Assembly (NCBI GenBank): GCA_051747585.1
Contig: JBNJGH010000104.1
Location: 1-11,497, forward strand
DNA from: Candidatus Rifleibacteriota bacterium
GTDB taxonomy: Bacteria > Muiribacteriota > Ozemobacteria > Ozemobacterales > Ozemobacteraceae
Direction of reading: 5' to 3'
DNA length: 11,497 nucleotides
This document shows positions 1-11,497 of this stretch, one piece after another. Both the position numbers and the translations under genes were made by a program. Position 1 is the stretch's first letter. Each line of letters opens with the position of its first letter. A model generated the notes under the pieces. It was not told where the DNA came from. It ran no database searches and saw nothing but the letters and a program-made list of their open reading frames with translations.

Positions 1-186
1 TACCACAGACTTGCTTACCAGTCTGACACCATGGCTGTAATCTACGTAATTTTCACCCTGAACCGCGGTTAAGTTCTGAAGCGGGTTTCCGCCATTATTG
101 GAATTGTGCCAATCATAATATTGCCCACCTGACATTGGTCTGGGAGAAATTGTGGTTTCTGCGTTTTCGTAGATCTGTTCTACCAT
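1..186 (-). pseudogene. Partial ORF running off the left edge; probable internally deleted remnant of a conserved 'DYSHGxRLV' hypothetical protein
   Basis: Not in the ORF track. Manual translation from ATG at 186 is open to the window edge: MVEQIYENAETTISPRPMSGGQYYDWHNSNNGGNPLQNLTAVQGENYVDYSHGVRLVSKSVV. The ATG lies 1 nt after the TGA of 188..607. The motifs resemble a hypothetical family recalled from memory (MVDxIY...YGWH...PIQPL...YxDYSHGxRLV). Confidence 0.5.
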
Positions 187-187
187 T

Positions 188-607
188 TCATTTGCTGTCA
201 GCTTCGCCGGCAATTCCTTTTTGGTTGAGAAAATCAGTTATTTTTTTTGCTGTATCTTTAGATATCCAGACTTGAAGGAAAGGCGCAGATTCTTCGTCTT
301 GATGAATAAAGGTAAGACCATATCCAAGCGCTGAGAGGTCTTTTTCCTTATAAGACTTTATGTCGGTATATTTTAACTTGATCCTGTCGGGAATATCATT
401 ATATGTACCCATCATCGCCGGAAATTTATCTGCTTTTTCGAACCAGCGCAGAATAAAACCCGGCAGATATTGAATCTTTAACACAATATAATCATCATAC
501 ACTTCGATTTTGCCAAACGGCCAGGAAGCCTGAAAAGACTTCAAAAAACTTCTACCGATATGTATCCCGCCACTAGCTTCAATCAAGGGCTTTTCGTCAT
601 TTCCCAT
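188..607 (-). CDS. Hypothetical protein (139 aa)
   Basis: ATG-started ORF with normal composition, preceded by an AGGA Shine-Dalgarno-like sequence (tcct at 617-620 on +); no recognisable motif. Confidence 0.7.
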   Translation of the reverse strand: MGNDEKPLIEASGGIHIGRSFLKSFQASWPFGKIEVYDDYIVLKIQYLPGFILRWFEKADKFPAMMGTYNDIPDRIKLKYTDIKSYKEKDLSALGYGLTFIHQDEESAPFLQVWISKDTAKKITDFLNQKGIAGEADSK

Positions 608-708
608 AACAATTTATCCTAAAAAAATTTAAATTTAAACTTATTTACCAGATCCCTTAATATTATAACAACTAAAATCTTAACCTGTTTAAGGTCATAA
701 ACTTCAAG

Positions 709-3700
709 CTACAATTTACATATAAATCTGGCAATAGTTCTGAAATTGTCTGGATTTACTGGTATCTCTTTATAGGCTTTATTTTGTGAAACCAGATAAT
801 ATTTACCTGAAGAATCTTTTTTGACTTTTTTTAATGCATAGGCAGTGTTGCCTGAATTATCAGTAAAGCCAACTGCTATTATTTGCCCCTGAAGGCTTCC
901 GGCGGAAAGAGGTGTAATTGGTTCAAGAACTACCAAGTCTCCATTCGATATTGGTTCTTTACCACCATCCATTGAATCACCTGATATTTTGACAACAAAC
1001 TGATTTCTTTCAGGACTAATTTTTCTTTTTCTTTTAACCTTAATTTTTTCGGAAGAGTTTTCAAAAATTCCTGTATTAGAAATGTTCCCTGCAGCTACTT
1101 TTATATTTGTATAAAAAGGAAGTTCCAACAATTTTTCTTCATTGTCACTGATATTTTCCAAATCATTTTGCGGATTAAGGTTTTCAACCTCTTCTAAAAT
1201 TTGCTTTTCTGCAGACACTTTTTTATTATCATTTGCAAACATATTTTTATTTTTGCGATAAAAATAAGCGGCTAATGCATACTCTACCCTATCTTGAATC
1301 AATTTTCTAAATTTTAAATTATTCCACCAGTCTTTTAACTCATCACAAATTTTAAAGCTATTGTTTTGATCTTTTTTAAGTTCAAAATAACTTTTGACAT
1401 TTTTTTTCTTTCGACCATGACCGGCAAGCTTAGCTAAAGGCATTTCCTTTACAAGCTTCATAAAGTTTTTTAATGAAACATTTTTATTACCATTATTTTT
1501 ATTAAAAATAGAACAGTCACTTTGATGCGAAGGATGAGTCAAATAATAGTTTCGAAATTGTCCTGCGATCCATTCTAAATGCCAGGATGTGCGCCTTTGA
1601 GTATCTTTTAACAGAACTTTGAGAACTACCATCTTATAAGATTTATTTGGAGCGAGTTCTTTTTCTATATGCTGCAAAAAATTGGCTGCAATTGTTCCAG
1701 TTAAAGATTTTTCAAAATCCGTTAAATCCTCAGCTTTTTCTTTGACTGCAAGCCAGTTTCCAAAACATTTAATAAAAGCTTTGGGTTCTGCAGCTTCAGG
1801 GTTGGCAAGAAAATCAAGTAAAGTCGGTGATCTTCCAAGTAATTTTTTAAGTCTTTTATATTCATCAATCAATAGCTGTTTACGCGATTTTGCTGCAAAG
1901 GTTTTTTTAATATCATCATGCCAAATTTTATAAACTTTTTTGTCTGCATCAACATAACAACCTGCAGGCAATTGAAAATCTAATGTCGCTTTAAGCGCTT
2001 TATCAGCATTGTGGGAATATTGCTGATTAAAAATCAAAGGAGTGATATAGGAATTACGAAAGTTTCCAATGAAGTCCAGCACTACAAGAAATTCTTTTCC
2101 CGGTGTCTTTCGCAAGCCTCTGCCAAGTTGTTGTAAAACTACCGAAAAAGATTCTGTCGGACGCAACATCAAAACATGGCTCACAGAAGGAATGTCCACG
2201 CCTTCGCCGAGAATATCCACAGAACAGATTACATTTAAGCTATCAGATTCATTTTGCAATCTGGCAATAGCTTGTTTTCTTTCGGCTTCTGTTGCTTCGC
2301 CAAGAAGGGCAACAGAATCAAGCCCGGCTATTGAGAACTTTTTGCTCATATAATTTGCGTGGCCTTTATTGGAGCAAAAAGCAAGAGCTTTAATTTTTCC
2401 TTGAGAAGGTAAAAAGCTTTTCAGGTTTTTAATAATCAACCCTGCTCTGGTATCATTTTCGAGCGCAGCTTCAAGCTGGCTTTCATCATAGCCCCGGCCT
2501 GTCCAACGGATGTTTGAATAATCGGTTTTATCATAAATTGCATAATACTGGAAAGGTGTAAGCCAACCTTGATCTATTGCAGAAAATAGTCTTGCTTCAT
2601 AAGCAATTTCGTAATCACAAATTTCCAGGACATCCCTTCCATCCATTCTTTCAGGGGTTGCCGTTAGACCAAGTAAGAATTCACTATTAAAATGCCTGAG
2701 AATTGATCGATAAGTTCTTGCCTCACTATGATGGAATTCATCAAAAACTATGTAATCAAAACGATTTGTTGCAAAAAGCTCAAGAGTAGATGCCCTGGAA
2801 AGAGTTTGAACCATTGCAAAAACACTACAATCAGAAACAGCAATCGCCTTTTTTTGCCCCAGGTTATTTTCTCCCGTAAGCAAAAGACCAAATGAATCTT
2901 TTTGCAAAACTTCTCTGAATACTTCCCTGGCTTCACCTAATATATTGGCCCTGTGCACAACAAACAAACATCTTTTTAATTTGCTTTGCTCAAAATCAAA
3001 TGCTGCAAGATGTGTTTTCCCCAGCCCGGTGGCAGCAATAACTGCAGCTTTTTTTATTCCTTGTTTTCGACGCTGCGCCAGCTCGCAAAGAGCATGTTTC
3101 TGCGCTGGTCTGGGAGAAGGCTTACCTGAATTTTCAAAATCAACTTCAAGCTCAAGTTGCAACCTTCTAACAATCTCTCTTTTTTTAAATTGTTTTCTGT
3201 AAGCTTCCAGAAATGAATTATTTATAAATACCGACTGCTGCTGCCAATATCCTTGAAAATCTTCCCGAGCCCTCTCAAACACTGTTTTTGAACTACATTG
3301 TTCGAAAGCCAGATTTATTTCAGAGTTAGAATAATAATTCCACTCTTCGTTATTAAGCAAACCACCTCCTGTCATATTTGAAGAACCAATTACAAGAGAA
3401 TTGTGCCCATCTGGTTTGGAAAAAAGAAAACATTTAATATGAAAAGACGGTGGTTGTTTCTTAAAGTCAACATTTTCATTATCCGGGTAAAAGACCTTTA
3501 ATTCTAAATTTGGAAAAAGCTTTACAAGGTGAATAAGATCATCAGGATCATTAAAGCAATTCATCGTAGAAGTTAGAATTTGTAATTGCCCGCCCCTGGC
3601 AAGAAACTTTTCAATATGTCTTTGTAACAAGTTAATCATGCCACGGCTTAGAAAGGCACTGGCGATCATACATTCTACTGATTCTGACAATTCCTGAATA

Positions 3701-4122
3701 AGAAGTTCCAACAAAGTTGGCTTACTGGAATTACTTACAATAAAAGGATTCAGTAATTTTCCTTCGCTTAAGGAGACTGTATCTTTTTCGCTGCTACTAT
3801 AGACAGCATGCAAATAATCGCGGTTTAAAAATCTTCCTCGGCTTAAAGCTCTATTATTTCTTGTTTCTTCTATTTCTTCTTTAGAAACCTTATAATAATC
3901 TGCCAGTGCATTTATTATTTCAATCACATCAGCAGCTTCTTTTGTAAATTCTTTCTGATTATTGCTTTGAAATAACTCATGAGCTTCTTCTATCAGTTTC
4001 AACTTGAGAAAGTAAGCATATTCCTCGGTTGTAAGCTGTTTCTTTATGGACTTTTTGCCACTGTTTGAAATTATTTCGGCAATTTTGTCCCTGACCAGTT
4101 TGCGGTAATAGATTGGAGGCAT
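709..4122 (-). CDS. Multidomain putative restriction/defence enzyme: MazG-like NTP pyrophosphohydrolase + PLD (HKD) nuclease + SF2 (ResIII-like) helicase + unassigned helical domain + S24/LexA-like peptidase; SauUSI-like core
   Basis: N-terminal KLVRDKI...KLIEEAHE...KEAADVIE (all-alpha NTP-PPase). FHIK...IGSSNMT...NEEWN (single PLD motif, His at 3439-3441). Walker A AATGLGKT (~3013-3036), DEFHH (2728-2742), GLTATPER, QQLGRGLR. C-terminal LPFY...VAAG, GDSM (970-981), ALKK. ATG at 4122 (MPPIYYRK, GGGAAG upstream) is preferred over the TTG at 4173 used in the ORF track. Confidence 0.88.
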   Translation of the reverse strand: MPPIYYRKLVRDKIAEIISNSGKKSIKKQLTTEEYAYFLKLKLIEEAHELFQSNNQKEFTKEAADVIEIINALADYYKVSKEEIEETRNNRALSRGRFLNRDYLHAVYSSSEKDTVSLSEGKLLNPFIVSNSSKPTLLELLIQELSESVECMIASAFLSRGMINLLQRHIEKFLARGGQLQILTSTMNCFNDPDDLIHLVKLFPNLELKVFYPDNENVDFKKQPPSFHIKCFLFSKPDGHNSLVIGSSNMTGGGLLNNEEWNYYSNSEINLAFEQCSSKTVFERAREDFQGYWQQQSVFINNSFLEAYRKQFKKREIVRRLQLELEVDFENSGKPSPRPAQKHALCELAQRRKQGIKKAAVIAATGLGKTHLAAFDFEQSKLKRCLFVVHRANILGEAREVFREVLQKDSFGLLLTGENNLGQKKAIAVSDCSVFAMVQTLSRASTLELFATNRFDYIVFDEFHHSEARTYRSILRHFNSEFLLGLTATPERMDGRDVLEICDYEIAYEARLFSAIDQGWLTPFQYYAIYDKTDYSNIRWTGRGYDESQLEAALENDTRAGLIIKNLKSFLPSQGKIKALAFCSNKGHANYMSKKFSIAGLDSVALLGEATEAERKQAIARLQNESDSLNVICSVDILGEGVDIPSVSHVLMLRPTESFSVVLQQLGRGLRKTPGKEFLVVLDFIGNFRNSYITPLIFNQQYSHNADKALKATLDFQLPAGCYVDADKKVYKIWHDDIKKTFAAKSRKQLLIDEYKRLKKLLGRSPTLLDFLANPEAAEPKAFIKCFGNWLAVKEKAEDLTDFEKSLTGTIAANFLQHIEKELAPNKSYKMVVLKVLLKDTQRRTSWHLEWIAGQFRNYYLTHPSHQSDCSIFNKNNGNKNVSLKNFMKLVKEMPLAKLAGHGRKKKNVKSYFELKKDQNNSFKICDELKDWWNNLKFRKLIQDRVEYALAAYFYRKNKNMFANDNKKVSAEKQILEEVENLNPQNDLENISDNEEKLLELPFYTNIKVAAGNISNTGIFENSSEKIKVKRKRKISPERNQFVVKISGDSMDGGKEPISNGDLVVLEPITPLSAGSLQGQIIAVGFTDNSGNTAYALKKVKKDSSGKYYLVSQNKAYKEIPVNPDNFRTIARFICKL

Positions 4123-4217
4123 ATATTTGGGCTTCCCGGAAATTGTTATGAAAATAACGCTATCATCTGGCAAGCAAGTTGTAAAATTGCTTGCAGTATT
4201 TATTTAGTATAATCAGG

Positions 4218-4808
4218 TTAAATTTGGGATTCGAGGCGGATCTGGGTTTTGTAGTGGGAATAGGTCCATAAACCAATTGCAAGAAAGATTATGCCTAGAA
4301 TGAAAAATTTATCTACTTGAGGGCCGGGGATAAGAACGGAAAAGTCTTTTTTGAACGGACAATAGCGGACCTTAATTTTTTTGCCGGGCTTATTGTATAT
4401 ATAGGTTTCAGAGGGAACACTTCCTTTGTTATCCCAGGTATTTTCGGGTGCCATCCAGACGCGACTGCCAAAAAATTGAATGCCGCCAACTTTGTATTCG
4501 TAGGTTATATCCAAACCATAATGAGTTTCCTCGCCATACCTCTCGCCAAGAATTTCAACGAAATAAGTTAACCAATCAGGATTTGCTTCGCTTATTTTAA
4601 ATGAAACGATTTTTCCTTCTGCCTCGGGCCAGTATGAACTGTAAAAACCCACAGGAAGCCAGAAAACATGTTGAAGAAGCATTAAAACTGCAAGGGCGAT
4701 ACAAATTTTTGCAGCATTCAAATTGTTCTTTAGTTTTTCAAGGTTACTCTCATTATCAGGCTCTTTAATGCCGTATTTGCTGTATTCTGAGCCCCAGCCA
4801 AAAGCCAT
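4218..4808 (-). CDS. DUF3592-like membrane protein
   Basis: TM helix, then WPEAEGKIVS...YEYKVGG...GKKIKVRYCP...SVL, then a second TM helix, the usual DUF3592 layout. Start moved to ATG 4808 because GGAGG (4817-4821) lies 8 nt upstream. Confidence 0.75.
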   Translation of the reverse strand: MAFGWGSEYSKYGIKEPDNESNLEKLKNNLNAAKICIALAVLMLLQHVFWLPVGFYSSYWPEAEGKIVSFKISEANPDWLTYFVEILGERYGEETHYGLDITYEYKVGGIQFFGSRVWMAPENTWDNKGSVPSETYIYNKPGKKIKVRYCPFKKDFSVLIPGPQVDKFFILGIIFLAIGLWTYSHYKTQIRLESQI

Positions 4809-4928
4809 AAATATTTCCTCCCGGTTAACTATTATTAAGTTAATGTTCTTCAAGTATATTATCAGTAATTATCTATTTAGAATATTAGCAAATTTTAAAA
4901 CATTATTGTATTAAATGATTTTTGCACC

Positions 4929-4982
4929 ATGGTCATTTCGACGCTTCGACTGCGCTCAGCGCAAGCTTCGCTCAATGACCAT
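4929..4982. repeat. REP-like palindrome (family 1 host) interrupted by a 24-bp module at 4943..4966
   Basis: atggtcat-ttcgac-[gcttcgactgcgctcagcgcaagc]-ttcgctca-atgaccat, with 8-bp perfect terminal inverted arms. Removing the bracketed part gives a 25/26 match to the empty copy at 9138..9163. Confidence 0.9.
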
Positions 4983-5068
4983 TATATAATAACATACTGT
5001 TGCGATCTTTCAGCGGAAGCAAAGGAACCATTAATCTTTATTTAATGCTTTTTTATTTTGGTTCATAG

Positions 5069-5653
5069 TCAAACGACTCTGGTAAAGCCGGGGGCGCTGT
5101 AAATATTGTCGGGGGGAATGACTTTCTGACCAAGGAATTGGGTTGGCTCGATGCCGGCCTGGTAATGTCTGAATAAATAATTGATTACTTCGGTGCAACT
5201 GAAAGCTGAGGCATCATCAAAGTTGAAGTCGAAATCATATTCAAGCCCTACTATTTCTTTGATCTCCTGCTCCATTTCCAGGTGATTTACAGGAAAAAGC
5301 GGTCTTAAAACGCAGACATGGTCGGTTTTCATAAAATCAAACAAAGACTCACGGCAAACCCCATCAGAAGTGGCATGAACTATAGTAGAGAAAGGGCCGT
5401 CAGCTTTTTCGCATATTGCGGCATGATTCCACCAGCCGGGAATGAAAACTTTGTCGACATAGGTGTCGTAACGTCTTAACAAAACATCAAATCTGTTAAT
5501 GTTTCGAGCAACCTTTTTAAAGTTGTCACCCTTAATTTTATAACCTTTCGGATGATAAAGAAAAAAAAGAGGATAATTATAAAGCCTTATATCACCAAAA
5601 AAGGTGAAAAGCTTATTTTTAAAATCTTTGGTAAGTTTTTTAATTTTTTTCAT
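5069..5653 (-). CDS. Permuted papain-like NlpC/P60 (YiiX/YebB/YaeF-like) cysteine hydrolase
   Basis: Catalytic His before Cys: PGWWNHAAI, IVHATSDGV, GLEYDFDF, FSCTEVI, and C-terminal PDNI. Confidence 0.85.
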   Translation of the reverse strand: MKKIKKLTKDFKNKLFTFFGDIRLYNYPLFFLYHPKGYKIKGDNFKKVARNINRFDVLLRRYDTYVDKVFIPGWWNHAAICEKADGPFSTIVHATSDGVCRESLFDFMKTDHVCVLRPLFPVNHLEMEQEIKEIVGLEYDFDFNFDDASAFSCTEVINYLFRHYQAGIEPTQFLGQKVIPPDNIYSAPGFTRVV

Positions 5654-5697
5654 TTTTTATTCCAAGTATCCAATTTAATTTTTTATAGAGAAATTTA

Positions 5698-5755
5698 GAG
5701 ATTGCTTCGTCGCTTCGACTACGCTCAGCACAAGCGCTACGCTCCTCGCAATGAC
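5698..5755. repeat. REP-like palindrome (family 2 host) interrupted by a 24-bp module at 5712..5735
   Basis: gagattgcttcgtc-[gcttcgactacgctcagcacaagc]-gctacgctcctcgcaatgac. The host has attgc/gcaat arms; the insert is 22/24 identical to 4943..4966. Confidence 0.85.
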
Positions 5756-5764
5756 ACCCTGTAT

Positions 5765-5790
5765 GGTCTCTGAGCGGAGTCGAAGAGACC
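5765..5790. repeat. Uninterrupted family 1 REP-like palindrome, inverted orientation
   Basis: ggtctc-tgagcggagtcgaa-gagacc. The core is the exact reverse complement of the ttcgactccgctca core of 9138..9163, with different but self-complementary arms. Confidence 0.88.
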
Positions 5791-5805
5791 CTGTAACCAT
5801 CCATT

Positions 5806-5856
5806 GGTCATTTCGACGCTTCGACTGCGCTCAGCGCATCGCTTCACTCAACCACC
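5806..5856. repeat. Family 1 REP-like host (degenerate right arm) interrupted by a 25-bp module at 5818..5842
   Basis: ggtcat-ttcgac-[gcttcgactgcgctcagcgcatcgc]-ttcactca-accacc; 5806..5838 is identical to 4931..4963. Confidence 0.88.
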
Positions 5857-5865
5857 AAAATATTG

Positions 5866-6876
5866 TTACTTAACACCGCCGAGGCTTTTTATGAGCTGAA
5901 TGGTTGATTTTTGTTTTTGTGCGATAGCACATTTAAGAGGTGTATCTTTGCTGATTTTGCCGCGCTTGTTAATGTCTGCCCCCTTTTCAACCAGGTATTT
6001 GACCATGTCATCAGCACCACGATGAGCTGCATGGTGCAAGGGGGTAGTTTCGCCATAAGCAGCTGCATTTACGTGGGCTCCAGCTTCAACCAGAAGCTTA
6101 ACCATTTTGAGGTCAGACTTTTGAGCAGCATAGTGTAGAGGTGAATAGGTAAATTTGCGATCATAGTTTCCTGCATAGGAAGAATGCCTGGCAAGTGACT
6201 CGAGTTCATAAACATTGGGTTTGGCACCATTTTCAATAAGAAATTTTGCTACTTCATAGTGATTATTTTCAGCGGCAAAGTGCAGCGGCGTTTTATTGTT
6301 TTCGCCATAAATATTTGCATTGGCTCCGTTTTCGACCAGAAATTTAACAAATTCGAAATTTCCATCGGCAGCAGCTGCATGAAGTGCAGTATATTCGGCA
6401 GATTTGCCTTTTTCGTTCAGGTTGAATTTGTGCATGGAAAACAGCTTTTTGGCCAGATCATAAAGCTTCAGGCGGGTTGCAAGAATAAAAAGATTGCCGG
6501 CATCGTTTCTTTCATAAACATGGGCACCCTCTTTTATCAGCATTTCAGCAATATCTAAGTTCTTAAAACCGATTGCATAATAAAGCGGGCTTTTTCCGCT
6601 GATTGAACTTTTATCGTTTTTGTTGGGATCGGCCCCCAGCTCAAGAAGTGCTTTGGCAACCTCGGGTTTCCCGAATTTGGCGGCAAAATGAATGGGCATA
6701 TGTTTTGTTCGCCGCGATAAGCTTTTAAGAAGCTTTTTATCGGCTTTTATCATTTTTGTAACTTTTGCAACATCGCCCGCTCTTATCGCTTTAAATATTG
6801 GCTTATCTTCGGCAGCAAAGTTTACAGGTAAAAACAAAGAAAGAAACAACAGTGTTGTAATTAAATACTTGTTCAT
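5866..6876 (-). CDS. Secreted ankyrin-repeat protein (~336 aa, about 8-9 repeats)
   Basis: Repeated TPLHxAA...VKxLxExGAxxN units. Start moved to ATG 6876 (GGAGG at 6883-6887), which gives a Sec-type signal peptide MNKYLITTLLFLSLFLPVNFA. Confidence 0.92.
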   Translation of the reverse strand: MNKYLITTLLFLSLFLPVNFAAEDKPIFKAIRAGDVAKVTKMIKADKKLLKSLSRRTKHMPIHFAAKFGKPEVAKALLELGADPNKNDKSSISGKSPLYYAIGFKNLDIAEMLIKEGAHVYERNDAGNLFILATRLKLYDLAKKLFSMHKFNLNEKGKSAEYTALHAAAADGNFEFVKFLVENGANANIYGENNKTPLHFAAENNHYEVAKFLIENGAKPNVYELESLARHSSYAGNYDRKFTYSPLHYAAQKSDLKMVKLLVEAGAHVNAAAYGETTPLHHAAHRGADDMVKYLVEKGADINKRGKISKDTPLKCAIAQKQKSTIQLIKSLGGVK

Positions 6877-6991
6877 TATTTTCCTCCAAATTTTGATTAG
6901 TAAAAGATTATCGCGAAATTTAAGCGTTTTCAATTAAAAATCTGAACTGGCTTAAAATTTAAATTAAGAATAACTGACCGCGCGTAGCAAG

Positions 6992-7651
6992 CTAGGCTTT
7001 TTCGATTTGTTGGGCCAGATAATGAAGCATTATTATTACCTTCTTGTAATAACCAATCTCGAAATTGAAATCCTTTCGTTCAAATTCGATTTTATCGGGT
7101 TTAACAATGAGGGTAAAATACTGATAAACGCCCTGCATTGACATAAATCCGGTGGGCGGAGACTTGAGTTCGAGCATGAGCTGTCTGATTTCAGGAATTA
7201 AAATTCGTTTAACCTCATTGGAAGAAATACCATGAACATAAAAAGCCTCATCAAATGGTTTGTCGCCAAGCTTTAAATCTCTAAGGCCTTTGGATCGCAA
7301 TTTCTTGCGGTTGGCCTGGCGATACATGTCATTTACTTTTTTAAAACTACTGGATTCTATTTCCAGCTCGGGTTCAAGTCTGAAAAGAATACTGGTTTGC
7401 TTTTTGGGATAAACAACAATTTGAATATCAGTGCGATAACGCCGATCTCGGCGCATTGTCTTTACTATAAAACTGATTTTTCGCCCATCGATTTCACTTT
7501 TAAACCTTGGGTTCTCCAGATCATCATCAATTAACTTTAATTTTAAATGCCGGGCAAATTTTTTAGCTTTATTAGATCTGTTGTAGCGCCATGAAAGAAC
7601 CAACAACAGGGGTAAGACAAGAACAGCAATTAAAAACAAAATTCCTTCCAT
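6992..7651 (-). CDS. Hypothetical membrane-anchored protein (219 aa)
   Basis: One N-terminal hydrophobic helix (ILFLIAVLVLPLLLVLSW) followed by a basic soluble domain containing GDKPFDEAFYVHG. Confidence 0.75.
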   Translation of the reverse strand: MEGILFLIAVLVLPLLLVLSWRYNRSNKAKKFARHLKLKLIDDDLENPRFKSEIDGRKISFIVKTMRRDRRYRTDIQIVVYPKKQTSILFRLEPELEIESSSFKKVNDMYRQANRKKLRSKGLRDLKLGDKPFDEAFYVHGISSNEVKRILIPEIRQLMLELKSPPTGFMSMQGVYQYFTLIVKPDKIEFERKDFNFEIGYYKKVIIMLHYLAQQIEKA

Positions 7652-7721
7652 ATTTTAAATATAATGAATTAATAAGGCAGAAGCAATCATGAAATATTTA
7701 TTCGATTATTTAAAATAAATT

Positions 7722-9089
7722 TCAATAAATAAATCCCAGATAAAGATCATTCACATTCGAACCGGTATATCCGGTAAAAATCAAATCACCGATTTGCTCG
7801 AAAAAGTGGTATGAATCATTATTCACCCGGAAATTTGCAGGTTGCAGTCCCTTCATCATAGAATGAACAAAAGTTTCGCCATCAACAATGGCACCTGCGG
7901 AATCGGTCGGGCCATCAATTCCATCGGTAGCGAAATAACACAAGATTATTCCATCGCTGTTTTTTAAGGCCTCTACTGAGGCCAGAGCCATTTCCTGGAC
8001 CCGGCCGCCAAGCCCTTTTCCTTCAACTTTAACATTGGCTTCACCGCCTGATATAATTGCAACAGGAATCGACCGGTTCGACATGCCTTGTTTTAATTTC
8101 AATGCAGCATTAGAAAATTCTTCTGCTGCTTTTTCGGCATTGATTTTTGCAAACTGCTTTAGTTTTACAACTTCGATCTTATTGCGGGCAAAAAAGTCAG
8201 CTGCCGCATCAATTGCTGAATGGTTATTCCCAAGAACAAAATTAAATGCTTTATTGAAACAGAAAGCATTAGCCTCAGGTGTCTCCTGTCTTTGGCCATC
8301 GGCACCTTCTGCTAATATTTCATTTATTTCTCCTGGTATTTGTTCAGCCAAATTGTGCTTTTTAAGAACCCCTATTGCATCCGCATAAGTTGAGGGATCT
8401 GGAACAGTGGGTCCCGAGGCAATGCAATCAAGCGGGTCGCCGATTACATCAGATAAAATTAGATTAACCAGAGTTGCAGGGTAAGCAGCCTTTGCCAGTT
8501 GCCCACCTTTTATTGCCGAAATATGTTTTCTTACGCTGTTGATTTCTGTAATATCAGCACCGGACTCAAGAAGTAATCTGGTAGTTTCGATTTTTTGTTC
8601 CAGGGAAATGCCATTGGCCGGAAGTGGCAGCAAACTTGAGCCTCCGCCGGATATCAAAGAAATAATCAGATCATTTTCGCCGGCATTTTTTGCCAGTTGC
8701 AAAATAGCTTTGGCTCCCGCCTGACCATGAATATCAGGAGTTGGATGAGCTGCCGGGTTAAGATGTATATTACCTGTTCTATCTTTATCGCCCGGATAAT
8801 TAACAACCCCATTTTTTATTCTATTTGCCAGAATATCAGTTAGAGCTTTTGCCATGGTTTTACCGGCCTTGCCGGCGCCGATAACATATATTGACTCAAA
8901 ATTATCAAGATTAAAAATTCGGTTTTGAATTAAAAGCTCATTATCTTTTAATTTCACCTGTCTCTTAATCAATTGCGCGGGATCAATTTCAGATATGACA
9001 GTTTGGCATGCTTTGAGCAGCAATTCTCTGGCCTCGCGGTTTTTTTGTCCGCAGCCATTTCTAATTATTTTAGCAAAGTTTTTAATCAC
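7722..9089 (-). CDS. Glycerate 2-kinase (GckA/TtuD type; DUF4147 + MOFRL domains)
   Basis: VIGAGKA, AAHPTPD, LISGGGSSL, VRKHISAIKGG, SDVIGD...IASGPT, SGGE, GGRVQE, TDGIDGPTDSAGA, TGSNVND; GTG start. Confidence 0.93.
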   Translation of the reverse strand: MIKNFAKIIRNGCGQKNREARELLLKACQTVISEIDPAQLIKRQVKLKDNELLIQNRIFNLDNFESIYVIGAGKAGKTMAKALTDILANRIKNGVVNYPGDKDRTGNIHLNPAAHPTPDIHGQAGAKAILQLAKNAGENDLIISLISGGGSSLLPLPANGISLEQKIETTRLLLESGADITEINSVRKHISAIKGGQLAKAAYPATLVNLILSDVIGDPLDCIASGPTVPDPSTYADAIGVLKKHNLAEQIPGEINEILAEGADGQRQETPEANAFCFNKAFNFVLGNNHSAIDAAADFFARNKIEVVKLKQFAKINAEKAAEEFSNAALKLKQGMSNRSIPVAIISGGEANVKVEGKGLGGRVQEMALASVEALKNSDGIILCYFATDGIDGPTDSAGAIVDGETFVHSMMKGLQPANFRVNNDSYHFFEQIGDLIFTGYTGSNVNDLYLGFIY

Positions 9090-9137
9090 AGCTGAGCAAC
9101 CTGTCTGTTAAATCAATGTGGTTTTGGATATTATACC

Positions 9138-9163
9138 GGTCATTTCGACTCCGCTCAATGACC
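9138..9163. repeat. Uninterrupted (empty) family 1 REP-like palindrome
   Basis: ggtcat-ttcgactccgctca-atgacc, 26 bp. Confidence 0.9.
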
Positions 9164-9183
9164 ATAAAATTTGTTTATTATAC

Positions 9184-9233
9184 CGTCATTAAGATGCTTC
9201 GGCAACGCTCAGCACGAGCTTAGCTCAATGACC
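9184..9233. repeat. Degenerate family 1 host interrupted by a 24-bp module at 9196..9219
   Basis: cgtcat-taagat-[gcttcggcaacgctcagcacgagc]-ttagctca-atgacc; same total length (50 bp) and insertion register as 4931..4980. Confidence 0.8.
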
Positions 9234-9246
9234 AAAAGAAGAATTG

Positions 9247-9456
9247 CACCACGGAGGCCTCAGAGAGCACGGAGCTGATTTTCAATCTTTTTCAGCCAGG
9301 GATTGTCCGAGGGACAATCCGCCGGCGGTTTCACCGCCCGGCTTTTCCATTAACAGCAGAACTTCAGAAAAACACCAGTGTTTTTCTGAAGTTCTGCTGT
9401 TAATGGAAACAAAGGCTGAAAAAGACTCTCTGTGTAACTCTGTGATCTCTGTGGTT
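9247..9456. repeat. Composite palindromic element bounded by inverted triple heptamers (CACRGAG x3 ... CTCTGTG x3), MITE/REPIN-like
   Basis: Left heptamers at 9250, 9259 and 9268; right heptamers at 9428, 9438 and 9447. Perfect 12-bp stem 9286-9297/9414-9425 enclosing hairpins at 9300-9320, 9321-9342 and 9344-9409. Confidence 0.8.
9344..9409. repeat. Perfect inverted repeat with 32-bp arms and a 2-nt spacer
   Basis: tttccattaacagcagaacttcagaaaaacac-ca-gtgtttttctgaagttctgctgttaatggaaa, checked base by base. Confidence 0.97.
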
Positions 9457-9565
9457 AATTTTTCTTGTCTTTGTGGTTTTGTGTGGGGCTTCTTATTATT
9501 TAGAAATCACTGATGGTGATTGCATAGGCATGGCCGGACAAACGGAATTTTTTTTAAGTTAGAAA

Positions 9566-9594
9566 TTGCATAAGGTATGATTAAGTGATAAAGT
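9566..9594 (+). promoter_or_regulatory. Candidate sigma70-type promoter for pruA
   Basis: TTGCAT (9566-9571), 17-nt spacer, TAAAGT (9589-9594) with extended -10 TG at 9586-9587; about 90 nt upstream of the ATG, which is preceded by AAAGGA. Confidence 0.5.
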
Positions 9595-9685
9595 TTTTAC
9601 AACAAACATTCAGCTGTAATTTTTTAACAGTTGTATTTATTATTAGATAAAATAAAAGGCAGACAATTTTGAAAGGAATGAAGTA

Positions 9686-11335
9686 ATGACCGTAAACAGT
9701 TTACACGTTAGTATTCCCTTACCTGCTAATGAGCCCTTGAACAGTTATGCTCCAGGCACTGAACCCAGAGCGTTGCTGAAGGCCGAATTAAAAAAACAAT
9801 CAGAGCAAACTATCGAAATTCCTTTGCTTCTTAACGGCAAAGAAGTTAAGACCGGAAAATTTGCTGAAATAAGAGCGCCACATAATCACGATTTGCTGCT
9901 GGCAAAATATCATCTGCCAGGGCCAGAAGAAGTGAAAATGGCAATTGATGGTTGTCTTGAAGCTTCCCGACAATGGCGTGACACTCCCTGGGAAGAAAGA
10001 GCTGCAATATTTCAAAGAGCTTCCGAGCTTCTTGCGGGCAAATATCGCATGAAAGTCAATGCTGCAACCATGCTTGGTCAGAGCAAAACAGCTCACCAGG
10101 CCGAAATAGATTCTGCTGCCGAGCTTATAGATTTTTTAAGATTCAATGTATACTACTGGGATAAAATTTATCGCGAACAGCCACCTCATTGCAGAACCGC
10201 AGATGCTTTCAACCGACTTGAATACAGACCTCTGGAAGGTTTTATTTTTGCAATTACGCCATTTAACTTTACTGCAATTGGCGGGAACCTACCTACTTCA
10301 CCGGCAATGGGCGGTAACGTAGCAATATGGAAACCTGCAAGCACTGCTGTTTTAAGTAATTATTATTTTATGCAGGTATTGATTGAAGCCGGTCTGCCAA
10401 AAGGGGTAATAAACTTTCTGCCCGGAAAAGGTTCAGTTATCGGGAATCCGATTTTTGATCACCCGGATTTTGCAGGACTGCATTTCACCGGATCAACCGG
10501 AACTTTCAACGGAATGTGGAAACGCATGGCCGAAAATCTCGAAAAAGGCCTTTACAAGAACTACCCAAGAATAGTTGGCGAAACCGGCGGCAAAAACTTT
10601 GTTCTAGCCTGTCCCGATGCAGAACTGGATGCTCTGGCTACTGCGCTTGTCAGAGGAGCATTCGAATACCAGGGTCAGAAGTGCTCTGCAGTAAGCCGCG
10701 CTTATATTCCTGCTTCGCTTTGGCCACAGGTTAAAGACAAAATGGGCGAAATGCTAAAGAAAATCAAAGTTGGCGAAGTAACAGATTTTACCAACTTTCT
10801 TGGAGCAGTTATCGATAAAAGCTCTTATGAAAATATAGTAAGCTATATTGAACATGCAAAAAGTGCTTCAGATGCCGAAATTCTTTTTGGTGGCACCTAT
10901 GATGACAGCAAAGGCTGGTTTATAGATCCGACAGTTGTAAAAACCACCAATCCACAATTTAAATTGATGCAGGAAGAAATTTTCGGCCCTGTCTTGACTG
11001 TTTATGTTTATGACGACGACAAACTCGACAGCATAGTTGACACAGTTGACCAGACGAGCCCTTACGGACTTACCGGTGGTCTGTTCACCAGAAACAGAGA
11101 AAACATAGTCAACATTACCAGGCGCTTGAGATATGCTGCCGGGAACTATTATATCAATGACAAACCGACTGGTGCGGTTGTCGGCCAACAGCCATTTGGC
11201 GGTGGTCGTGGAAGTGGAACCAATGATAAGGCAGGTAGTCTGCTGAATCTTCTTCGCTGGGTTTCTCCGAGAAATATCAAAGAACAACTGGTATCGCCAG
11301 AAAACTTTGATTATCCCTTTATGCAGGAACCCTGA
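9686..11335 (+). CDS. pruA: L-glutamate gamma-semialdehyde dehydrogenase (1-pyrroline-5-carboxylate dehydrogenase, ALDH4 type)
   Basis: PANEP start, ATMLGQSK, ELIDFLRFN, RPLEGF...TPFNFTAI, HFTGST, catalytic ETGGKN and FEYQGQKCSA, EEIFGP, NDKPTGAVVGQQPFGG...SGTNDKAG. Confidence 0.96.
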   Translation: MTVNSLHVSIPLPANEPLNSYAPGTEPRALLKAELKKQSEQTIEIPLLLNGKEVKTGKFAEIRAPHNHDLLLAKYHLPGPEEVKMAIDGCLEASRQWRDTPWEERAAIFQRASELLAGKYRMKVNAATMLGQSKTAHQAEIDSAAELIDFLRFNVYYWDKIYREQPPHCRTADAFNRLEYRPLEGFIFAITPFNFTAIGGNLPTSPAMGGNVAIWKPASTAVLSNYYFMQVLIEAGLPKGVINFLPGKGSVIGNPIFDHPDFAGLHFTGSTGTFNGMWKRMAENLEKGLYKNYPRIVGETGGKNFVLACPDAELDALATALVRGAFEYQGQKCSAVSRAYIPASLWPQVKDKMGEMLKKIKVGEVTDFTNFLGAVIDKSSYENIVSYIEHAKSASDAEILFGGTYDDSKGWFIDPTVVKTTNPQFKLMQEEIFGPVLTVYVYDDDKLDSIVDTVDQTSPYGLTGGLFTRNRENIVNITRRLRYAAGNYYINDKPTGAVVGQQPFGGGRGSGTNDKAGSLLNLLRWVSPRNIKEQLVSPENFDYPFMQEP

Positions 11336-11370
11336 TATATCAATGGTTTGAAGAAAAATTACTTAGCTTT

Positions 11371-11401
11371 AAGCTCTCTGGGCAACCAGAGAGCTTTTTT
11401 T
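11371..11401 (+). terminator. Rho-independent terminator of pruA
   Basis: aagctctctgg-gcaa-ccagagagctt perfect 11-bp stem with a GNRA loop, running into a T-tract, 35 nt after the stop codon. Confidence 0.9.
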
Positions 11402-11480
11402 CAGGAATTCTCGGTCAACTATTATTAGCTGGTTACAAAAAGTTCTGGTTTTATTTATTTAGGGCAAATAAAGAATTTAA

Positions 11481-11497
11481 ACCACTGAGGACGCCGA
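11481..11497. repeat. Probable left end of another heptamer-type element, cut by the window edge
   Basis: aagaatt-taa-accactgag-ga-cgccga matches aagaatt-gc-accacggag-gc-ctcaga at 9239..9264 in motif and spacing. Confidence 0.45.

Follow-up and report, generated by a model that had tools for sequence, protein, structure and literature searches.

We analyzed an 11,497-nt stretch of DNA from a Candidatus Rifleibacteriota bacterium (GenBank assembly GCA_051747585.1, contig JBNJGH010000104.1, positions 1 to 11,497; hereafter the window), in which a single minus-strand open reading frame (ORF; P0001) encodes a 1137-residue protein that may be an undescribed variant of the SauUSI-like anti-phage restriction enzymes. 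The protein has the PLD nuclease and SF2 helicase core of SauUSI and is without the SRA domain of that enzyme. By analogy, we regard it with moderate confidence as an accessory, ATP-driven SauUSI-like defense nuclease whose target would be read by a winged-helix domain, whose N-terminal enzyme would clean or sense nucleotides, and whose optional C-terminal tail would be a RecA-responsive cap. The gene and its domains are as follows.

709..4122, minus strand: single ORF of 1137 residues (by translation), comprising NTP pyrophosphatase, PLD nuclease, SF2 helicase, coupler, winged helix resembling sulfur-binding domains (SBDs), and S24 domain.
3799..4122, minus strand: all-alpha NTP pyrophosphatase (NTP-PPase) domain, HisE/PRA-PH-like (residues 1-108), with E45, E46, E49, E62, D65, and E68 and a KLVRD motif.
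3178..3759, minus strand: PLD (HxK) nuclease domain (residues 122-315), in which H228, K230, N249, and E260 correspond to SauUSI H119, K121, N139, and E150.
2023..3120, minus strand: SF2 DExH helicase-like ATPase (residues 335-700), with Walker A K369, DEFH at 461-464, and motif VI QQLGRGLR.
1723..1890, minus strand: coupler subdomain 1 (about residues 745-800), made up of four short helices like its SauUSI counterpart (618-669).
1249..1710, minus strand: winged-helix domain (residues 805-958) at the position of SauUSI coupler subdomain 2, with the candidate pocket Y829, K830, M894, P895, and K898.
712..1140, minus strand: S24 (LexA/UmuD-type) domain (residues 995-1137), with a cleavage-type bond A1011-G1012, S1050, and K1098.

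SauUSI (7CLG) is both the best sequence match (E = 2e-88, residues 125-839) and the best Foldseek match of the protein. The homolog search scored 8000 candidates, of which 2581 passed, and counts given below out of 120 cover the best 120 of these 2581. Aligned to 7CLG, H228, K230, N249, and E260 are each kept in 120 of 120 homologs, and SauUSI mutants of the four nuclease residues are inactive (PMC3141236; here and below, publications are cited from the accessible portions of their texts). The Walker A lysine and the DEFH box are invariant in the family alignment, and the SF2 DExH ATPase is followed by a helical coupler, as in SauUSI-type enzymes. The SauUSI-like PLD/SF2 core proposed in an earlier note on this DNA is therefore real, with its catalytic residues intact. 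SauUSI itself is a PLD-mediated dimer with a coupler at residues 618-805 and an SRA reader at 806-953 (PMC7913695). The structural alignment (VIA) pairs residues 123-954 of our model with 26-794 of 7CLG, ending before that SRA domain, and an SRA profile built from SauUSI-type loci matched 0 of 121 family proteins; SauUSI's defining reader is thus missing. A Staphylococcus-only SRA profile, used as a control, recovered 34 of 34 SauUSI-type proteins from the fetched loci, five long proteins of other types having been set aside beforehand. The PADLOC mREase_IV match stops at model position 707 of 953. Because the SRA domain is absent, the modification dependence that had been suggested by likeness to SauUSI is not directly implied: the core is shared, and the specificity, given by a domain for 5-methylcytosine (5mC) and 5-hydroxymethylcytosine (5hmC) in SauUSI, does not follow from it. 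The target is probably other than 5mC.

The winged-helix domain was modeled through a homolog (L088, 42% identical) and compared with 48,161 chains. The top structural match of this homolog model was the SBD of Hga (8H0L; Z = 8.4, rmsd 2.7, 112 residues aligned), followed by the SprMcrA SBD (7CCD; Z = 7.5), the winged helices of Cdc6 (7.3) and Orc1 (7.2), and the ScoMcrA SBD (5ZMO; 7.2); SBD entries, from three proteins, account for five of the top eight rows. The nearest Pfam-bearing cluster in the Atlas was PF26340 (DNA-SBD_ScoMcrA) at 0.77, which we treat as a lead only, and the same fold matches an AAA ATPase and a DUF262 protein with Foldseek probability 1.0, but at E of about 0.01. Published SBD pockets are formed by H116, R117, Y164, P165, and A168 (PMC6224610) and by H25, K26, L75, P76, and H79 (PMC10602919); by eye, they correspond to Y829, K830, M894, P895, and K898 here. 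ScoMcrA requires both P165 and R117, accepts the R117K change, and shows improved binding as the Y164M mutant (PMC6224610). K830 is kept in 118, P895 in 119, and M894 in 110 of 119 close homologs, and in 129 diverse aligned rows the Pro is present in all 129 and the Lys in 122. Neither equivalent is kept in SRA-type relatives (0 of 34, in what is there a low-identity alignment). The modeled fold makes kinship of the winged helix with SBDs plausible, and phosphorothioate (PT) DNA is a candidate ligand, although we consider such binding doubtful.

Several observations weigh against this reading. The lead of the SBDs over the Cdc6 and Orc1 winged helices is about one Z unit, and the comparison tool itself cautions that values below 8, or below 13 in the case of helical bundles, may reflect generic resemblance. 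The pocket register was set by eye, without residue-level superposition; the highly conserved His of SBDs is a Tyr here, and H116I lowers binding by ScoMcrA by 94% (PMC6224610). Kinship was not found at the sequence-profile level: hhalign, run in local and global mode with the winged-helix profile against one narrow SBD-HNH clade, gave probabilities of 0.16-0.3%, within block-shuffled controls, and scans of the winged helix against PDB (three profiles), NCBIfam, and a Pfam copy that did not return PF26340 itself revealed no SBD homology. Foldseek against PDB gave no match for the domain. Among 136 distant representatives, five have an SRA-like tail together with the winged helix.

At E ≤0.001, the winged-helix profile matches 848 clusters at 50% identity. 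When shorter proteins with stand-alone fusions of the winged helix were sought, 41 came up, and the 10 inspected are apparent fragments or split parts of the family. Separately, an SBD-HNH clade (L083:7113-8006 and P0163-P0231) with KK replacing the usual HK pocket motif was observed in a type-4-BREX-like cluster.

The N-terminal domain belongs to the all-alpha NTP pyrophosphatases, with a helical domain, an ExxE...ExxD metal-binding motif, and profile matches to members of this group. The acidic residues, already recognized in the earlier note, are conserved across the family: E45 in 109, E46 in 106, E49 in 101, and E62 and D65 in 104 each of 112 proteins, and E68 in 106 of 114. The family profile of this domain matches structures of the HisE phosphoribosyl-ATP pyrophosphatase at E = 1e-6; its matches to MazG proteins are weaker, and PRA-PH was matched in 21 of 23 members. 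The domain is therefore nearer to HisE/PRA-PH than to MazG proper, and of the previous description as a MazG-like pyrophosphatase the broader fold assignment holds. The note's expectation that this NTP-PPase is normally a separate gene did not hold in this family, where fusion is the norm: 106 of the 120 best homologs have the domain at their N terminus, and several of the other 14 look incomplete. The N-terminal slot exchanges its occupant: a HIT hydrolase, recognized by sequence motif, is found in four distant representatives (P0309, P0315, P0354, and P0361), a SAM methyltransferase is fused in place of the pyrophosphatase in L075, and 19 distant PLD-helicase-winged-helix representatives are without an N-terminal enzyme according to our own profiles. 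A further pairing of a helicase with a pyrophosphatase was seen in L089:10403-12637, where a Schlafen group 3 helicase, encoded opposite the family gene, has an HNH nuclease and a MazG-like protein with its own gene as neighbors.

The C-terminal S24 domain has the features of an autopeptidase, namely a PF00717 match above the cut-off, a Ser/Lys dyad, and an upstream Ala-Gly bond. The Ala-Gly bond, the GDSM serine, and the downstream lysine are all present in 29 of 29 S24-bearing members (aligned to UmuD for the query), and recA and lexA are present in this genome. The C-terminal region is reached by 119 proteins including the query, of which 29 have S24, 47 have unannotated tails, and 43 have none. 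One alternative tail of about 110 residues (P0031, P0048, and L088) has a conserved FPARIKAAATAL motif and a confident alpha/beta model; it matches nothing in Pfam or the Atlas and no structure clearly. Another tail type, rich in beta structure, is found either by itself or in tandem with the first.

The full four-module architecture is present in 24 of the 120 best homologs. Of the 120, the closest named homologs belong to Ca. Riflebacteria (55-57% identity); further ones come from Deltaproteobacteria, Desulfobacterota-type hosts, and archaea. Within the phylum, 10 of 87 genomes have a match at E 1e-100, eight at 45% identity or above and two more distant; the distribution is patchy (8 of 87 genomes), in differing contexts. 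The gene is split by frameshifts in L072, L085, L095, L098, L115, L127, and L131, some of which may be assembly errors. Coverage of 80% of the query is reached by none of the phage records and by one of 24 plasmid matches. A pattern match on a single viral contig was rejected as a family gene by our own profiles.

The single uninterrupted frame described in the earlier note, which named no strand, is confirmed by translation, with neither a stop nor a Met between residue 108 and the start of the PLD domain. The note counted four modules and overlooked a fifth, the winged helix, and the absence of SRA. Its proposed check of reads for a stop or frameshift between the pyrophosphatase and PLD parts found the junction intact: contigs of three of the four public runs compared (two studies) bridge it without an indel, the best of these runs possibly being the source sample itself, and the lone substitution there (3796, read by hand) is Ser to Arg and creates no stop. 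A frameshift or assembly artefact as the origin of the fusion was rejected, because contigs cross the junction ungapped and the homologs are fused too. The AlphaFold2 model, based on an 88-sequence alignment, has a mean pLDDT of 85. Library matches above the Pfam cut-off were ResIII (E = 6e-33), Helicase_C (7e-13), and Peptidase_S24 (5e-12); PLDc_2 (1e-4) and MazG-like (0.058) fell below it.

Genomic context was assessed in 57 metagenome loci from a degenerate pattern scan, pooled with genome loci. After de-duplication at 90% identity, with at least 550 nt upstream required (n = 30), a co-oriented gene for a class I S-adenosylmethionine (SAM) methyltransferase of about 200 residues lies directly upstream in 16 loci, not including this one; it is found in 0 of 5 loci of the closest clade versus 16 of 25 elsewhere. 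In nine loci, the gap to the start of the family gene is −4 to +20 nt, and this overlap or near-abutment suggests translational coupling. The earlier proposal of a stand-alone system is thus apt for this locus and for all five closest-clade loci, and not for the 16 of 25 others with the upstream gene; its statement that the window lacks a methyltransferase is correct for the nine window ORFs scanned. The idea of a sulfur-specific partner, prompted by weak TPMT/TehB matches of the methyltransferase, is weakened, because the same gene also precedes five SRA-type (SauUSI-type) genes. An orphan of this methyltransferase family (39% to that of L089) occurs elsewhere in this genome (G000 C65:14351-14968, L133) and overlaps, by sequence, the end of an acetate-kinase-like gene.

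A flank scan of 34 loci (ORFs of at least 95 residues within 5 kb, one locus per cluster, a single gene only for L071) found restriction, defense, or toxin-antitoxin neighbors in 19, with domains including BrxL/PglZ, SspD, CD-NTase, Mrr, GmrSD, AbiE, PIN, and Schlafen. In L083, an SBD-HNH gene adjoins the family gene; in Pseudoalteromonas, the methyltransferase and PLD-helicase-S24 pair adjoins an ABC three-component operon; and in L071, a DUF3427(124-248)-HNH gene lies directly downstream. This genome also encodes, at C126:3515-4369 (L134) and unlinked to the family gene, an HNH nuclease with an SRA-like region (DUF3427 C-half) that shares 60% identity with the L071 protein. In three unrelated loci (L092, L123, and L127), an ADP-ribosylglycohydrolase gene was observed within two genes downstream of the family gene. 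Several features of these neighborhoods count on the other side. The 19 of 34 is our own count, without a random-locus control; the nine window ORFs scanned contain no defense gene; and sspD directly downstream in L093/L126, like the PT-BREX-like cluster of L083, is awkward for a PT-restricting enzyme. Neighbors of this kind are frequent in the homologous loci, at 19 of 34 by an uncontrolled count, and this window itself is no defense island. No match to dndC, sspD, or DUF4007 was found in this 93.6% complete genome, where the control for the DUF4007 search also matched nowhere. Across the 87 genomes of the phylum, one had a dndC match over the cut-off and four had a strong sspD match, none of them being among the eight carriers; an anti-correlation with PT writer genes is uninformative, because the chance overlap is only about 0.5 genome.

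Two further elements lie upstream of the gene.

4206..4234, minus strand: sigma-70-like promoter (-35 hexamer, 17 nt, -10 hexamer), found by eye, without a promoter scan.
4170..4194, no strand assigned: perfect 8-bp inverted repeat with a 9-bp spacer, located between promoter and start and occurring nowhere else in the genome.

Similar promoter elements precede close homologs (by eye). The inverted repeat, a possible operator, was not seen upstream of homologs. An in-frame TTG at 4173 lies upstream of the ATG at 4122; in all eight homologous upstream regions compared, the start is the Met that matches ATG 4122. Upstream of L004, L005, L006, L068, L069, L070, and L101, a -10-like hexamer is separated, by eye, from the ATG by only 6-7 nt, so that these close homologs, unlike this window, may have leaderless mRNAs. 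No RNA run among those listed contains the gene. The window neighbors encode a 139-residue familyless protein, a DUF3592 protein, a C92 permuted papain-like amidase (5069-5653), an ankyrin-repeat protein (5866-6933) whose N terminus, judged by eye, is a likely signal peptide, a DUF3137 protein, a DUF4147/MOFRL protein, and an aldehyde dehydrogenase. A palindromic, REP-like repeat is present between genes of the window in four copies (4930-4990, 5700-5760, 5805-5865, and 9180-9245), and its core pattern occurs 44 times in the genome.

We propose a working scheme for the protein based on these comparisons. Two chains would dimerize via their single-HxK PLD domains to form the DNase site, and the winged helix, in place of SRA, would recognize foreign DNA. 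The SBD-like fold with its conserved Lys and Pro points to a backbone feature, with PT as the leading candidate. Recognition would start the SF2 motor, and translocation would let the PLD dimer shred the DNA, as inferred from SauUSI. Non-canonical dNTPs that the invader makes or releases would be destroyed by the N-terminal pyrophosphatase, which would keep the host from incorporating them and becoming a target. RecA-ssDNA filaments may prompt the optional S24 tail to cleave itself at A1011-G1012; the remaining core would be roughly as large as the 43 tail-less homologs, and DNA damage might thereby tune activity. The most far-reaching form of this scheme, which we think rather unlikely, would be the first motor-driven (SF2-translocating, PLD-cutting) restriction enzyme to read a backbone mark, such as PT, through an SBD-like winged helix. 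Its own pyrophosphatase would guard against self-marking by removing the modified dNTPs that shredding sets free, it would have a RecA-cleavable cap, and SauUSI would have been derived from it, the reader having decayed to a coupler after the gain of SRA.

Three other explanations deserve weighing. The winged helix could be a structural coupler and a separate SRA-type protein could act in trans, as a split SauUSI-like 5mC/5hmC enzyme. The domain sits at the SauUSI coupler position and weakly matches DUF3427 positions 37-121, a specificity domain can be a separate nearby protein (PMC6765204), and the DUF3427-HNH gene that follows in L071 has its homolog on C126 here. Such a neighbor is found, however, in just 1 of the 34 scanned loci and itself carries an HNH nuclease, and a pure coupler leaves unexplained the near-invariant K830 and P895 that SRA-type enzymes have lost; we regard this arrangement as unlikely. 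In Kongming, a house-cleaning pyrophosphatase fold serves as a sensor, and a similar logic would apply to an abortive system in which the N-terminal domain (NTP-PPase, HIT, or methyltransferase product) detects an unusual nucleotide arising in infection and thereby releases the PLD-helicase to degrade DNA without sequence specificity. The missing SRA reader, one slot holding three unrelated small-molecule enzymes, and the tightly spaced methyltransferase genes are consistent with this, and nucleotide-pool monitoring has been raised as a hypothetical route (PMC12707154). The conserved acidic catalytic residues nevertheless fit hydrolysis equally well, many distant members have no N-terminal enzyme at all, and the closest clade has no adjacent methyltransferase; we consider such an abortive system improbable.

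A role in DNA repair or SOS-controlled cell death, as a damage-linked nuclease-helicase with house-cleaning of damaged dNTPs rather than phage restriction, is very unlikely. It would suit the LexA-type S24 intact in every S24-bearing member, the similarity that we also found to the RadD repair helicase, and the housekeeping genes that surround this locus and several of the closest homologs. Against it, 90 of 119 winged-helix proteins are without S24, few genomes of the phylum carry the gene and those in different contexts, it is often split by frameshifts, and the closest characterized protein is a restriction enzyme. The accessory SauUSI-like defense nuclease remains the reading that we prefer.

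The earlier note knew of no described system with this architecture, and none was found in the accessible text of the literature covered, which includes PMC7641849, PMC6765204, PMC7461809, PMC12191111, PMC12839542, PMC12707154, PMC12629846, and the preprints 10.1101/2025.01.08.631726 and 10.1101/2024.01.28.577318; an SBD-like domain in a PLD-helicase was likewise undescribed there. Supplements and subscription papers lie beyond this coverage, and such proteins may be included in those belonging to PMC6765204, PMC12839542, and the DefensePredictor preprint. The domain combination is already spelled out in JGI automatic protein names. PADLOC returned partial mREase_IV and PbeA matches only and has no model for the N- or C-terminal modules. 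A possible link to DdaA led nowhere. The present data define a sizeable uncharacterized SauUSI-like branch that is unable to read 5mC in the way SauUSI does, and name two residues, K830 and P895, for mutation. With the pyrophosphatase fused, the reason for the association of SauUSI-like genes with nucleotide hydrolases becomes testable within a single polypeptide. If the reader does bind PT or another backbone mark, PT-dependent restriction would extend to ATP-driven motors, and an origin of SauUSI's coupler would be suggested.

Among known systems, SauUSI has the same PLD, SF2, and coupler order, the four nuclease residues, and the helicase motifs. It is also associated with a nucleotide hydrolase, in the form of an adjacent MutT/Nudix gene, the reason for which was unexamined in the accessible text (PMC3141236), whereas here an all-alpha NTP-PPase is fused N-terminally. 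The present family differs further in having no SRA target-recognition domain, in its optional S24 tail, and in keeping a YK...P motif in the winged helix that SauUSI-type proteins have lost. SBD-containing PT-dependent restriction endonucleases (ScoMcrA, SprMcrA, Hga, and EcoWI) resemble residues 805-958 in their winged-helix fold, as judged from the homolog model, and in having, by eye, a basic residue and a Pro at pocket-like positions. They differ in the absence of detectable profile homology, in the His replaced by Tyr, and in the K-to-P spacing (65 here, 48-51 there); their surveyed partners are HNH, PD-(D/E)XK, kinase, or unknown domains (PMC10602919), while the effector here is a PLD nuclease with an ATP motor. 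HisE, PRA-PH, and MazG proteins have the same acidic motifs and helical fold, but the domain is fused here to a nuclease-helicase and its N-terminal KLVRDxIP motif lies outside the HisE match. LexA and UmuD share the Ala-Gly bond, GDSM serine, and downstream lysine, whereas this S24 domain has no DNA-binding helix-turn-helix, is C-terminal on an enzyme, and is absent from most family members. END nucleases, PbeA, and type-2 BR/MANTIS likewise have a PLD nuclease at the N terminus, joined to a sensor or helicase that varies; END, however, senses through an inactive EndoIII and is without a helicase, the match to PbeA is partial (E = 5e-37) and a search of this genome found no dnd/ssp writer genes, and type-2 BR/MANTIS, compared by the accessible descriptions, are multi-gene systems, in contrast to the single polypeptide described here.

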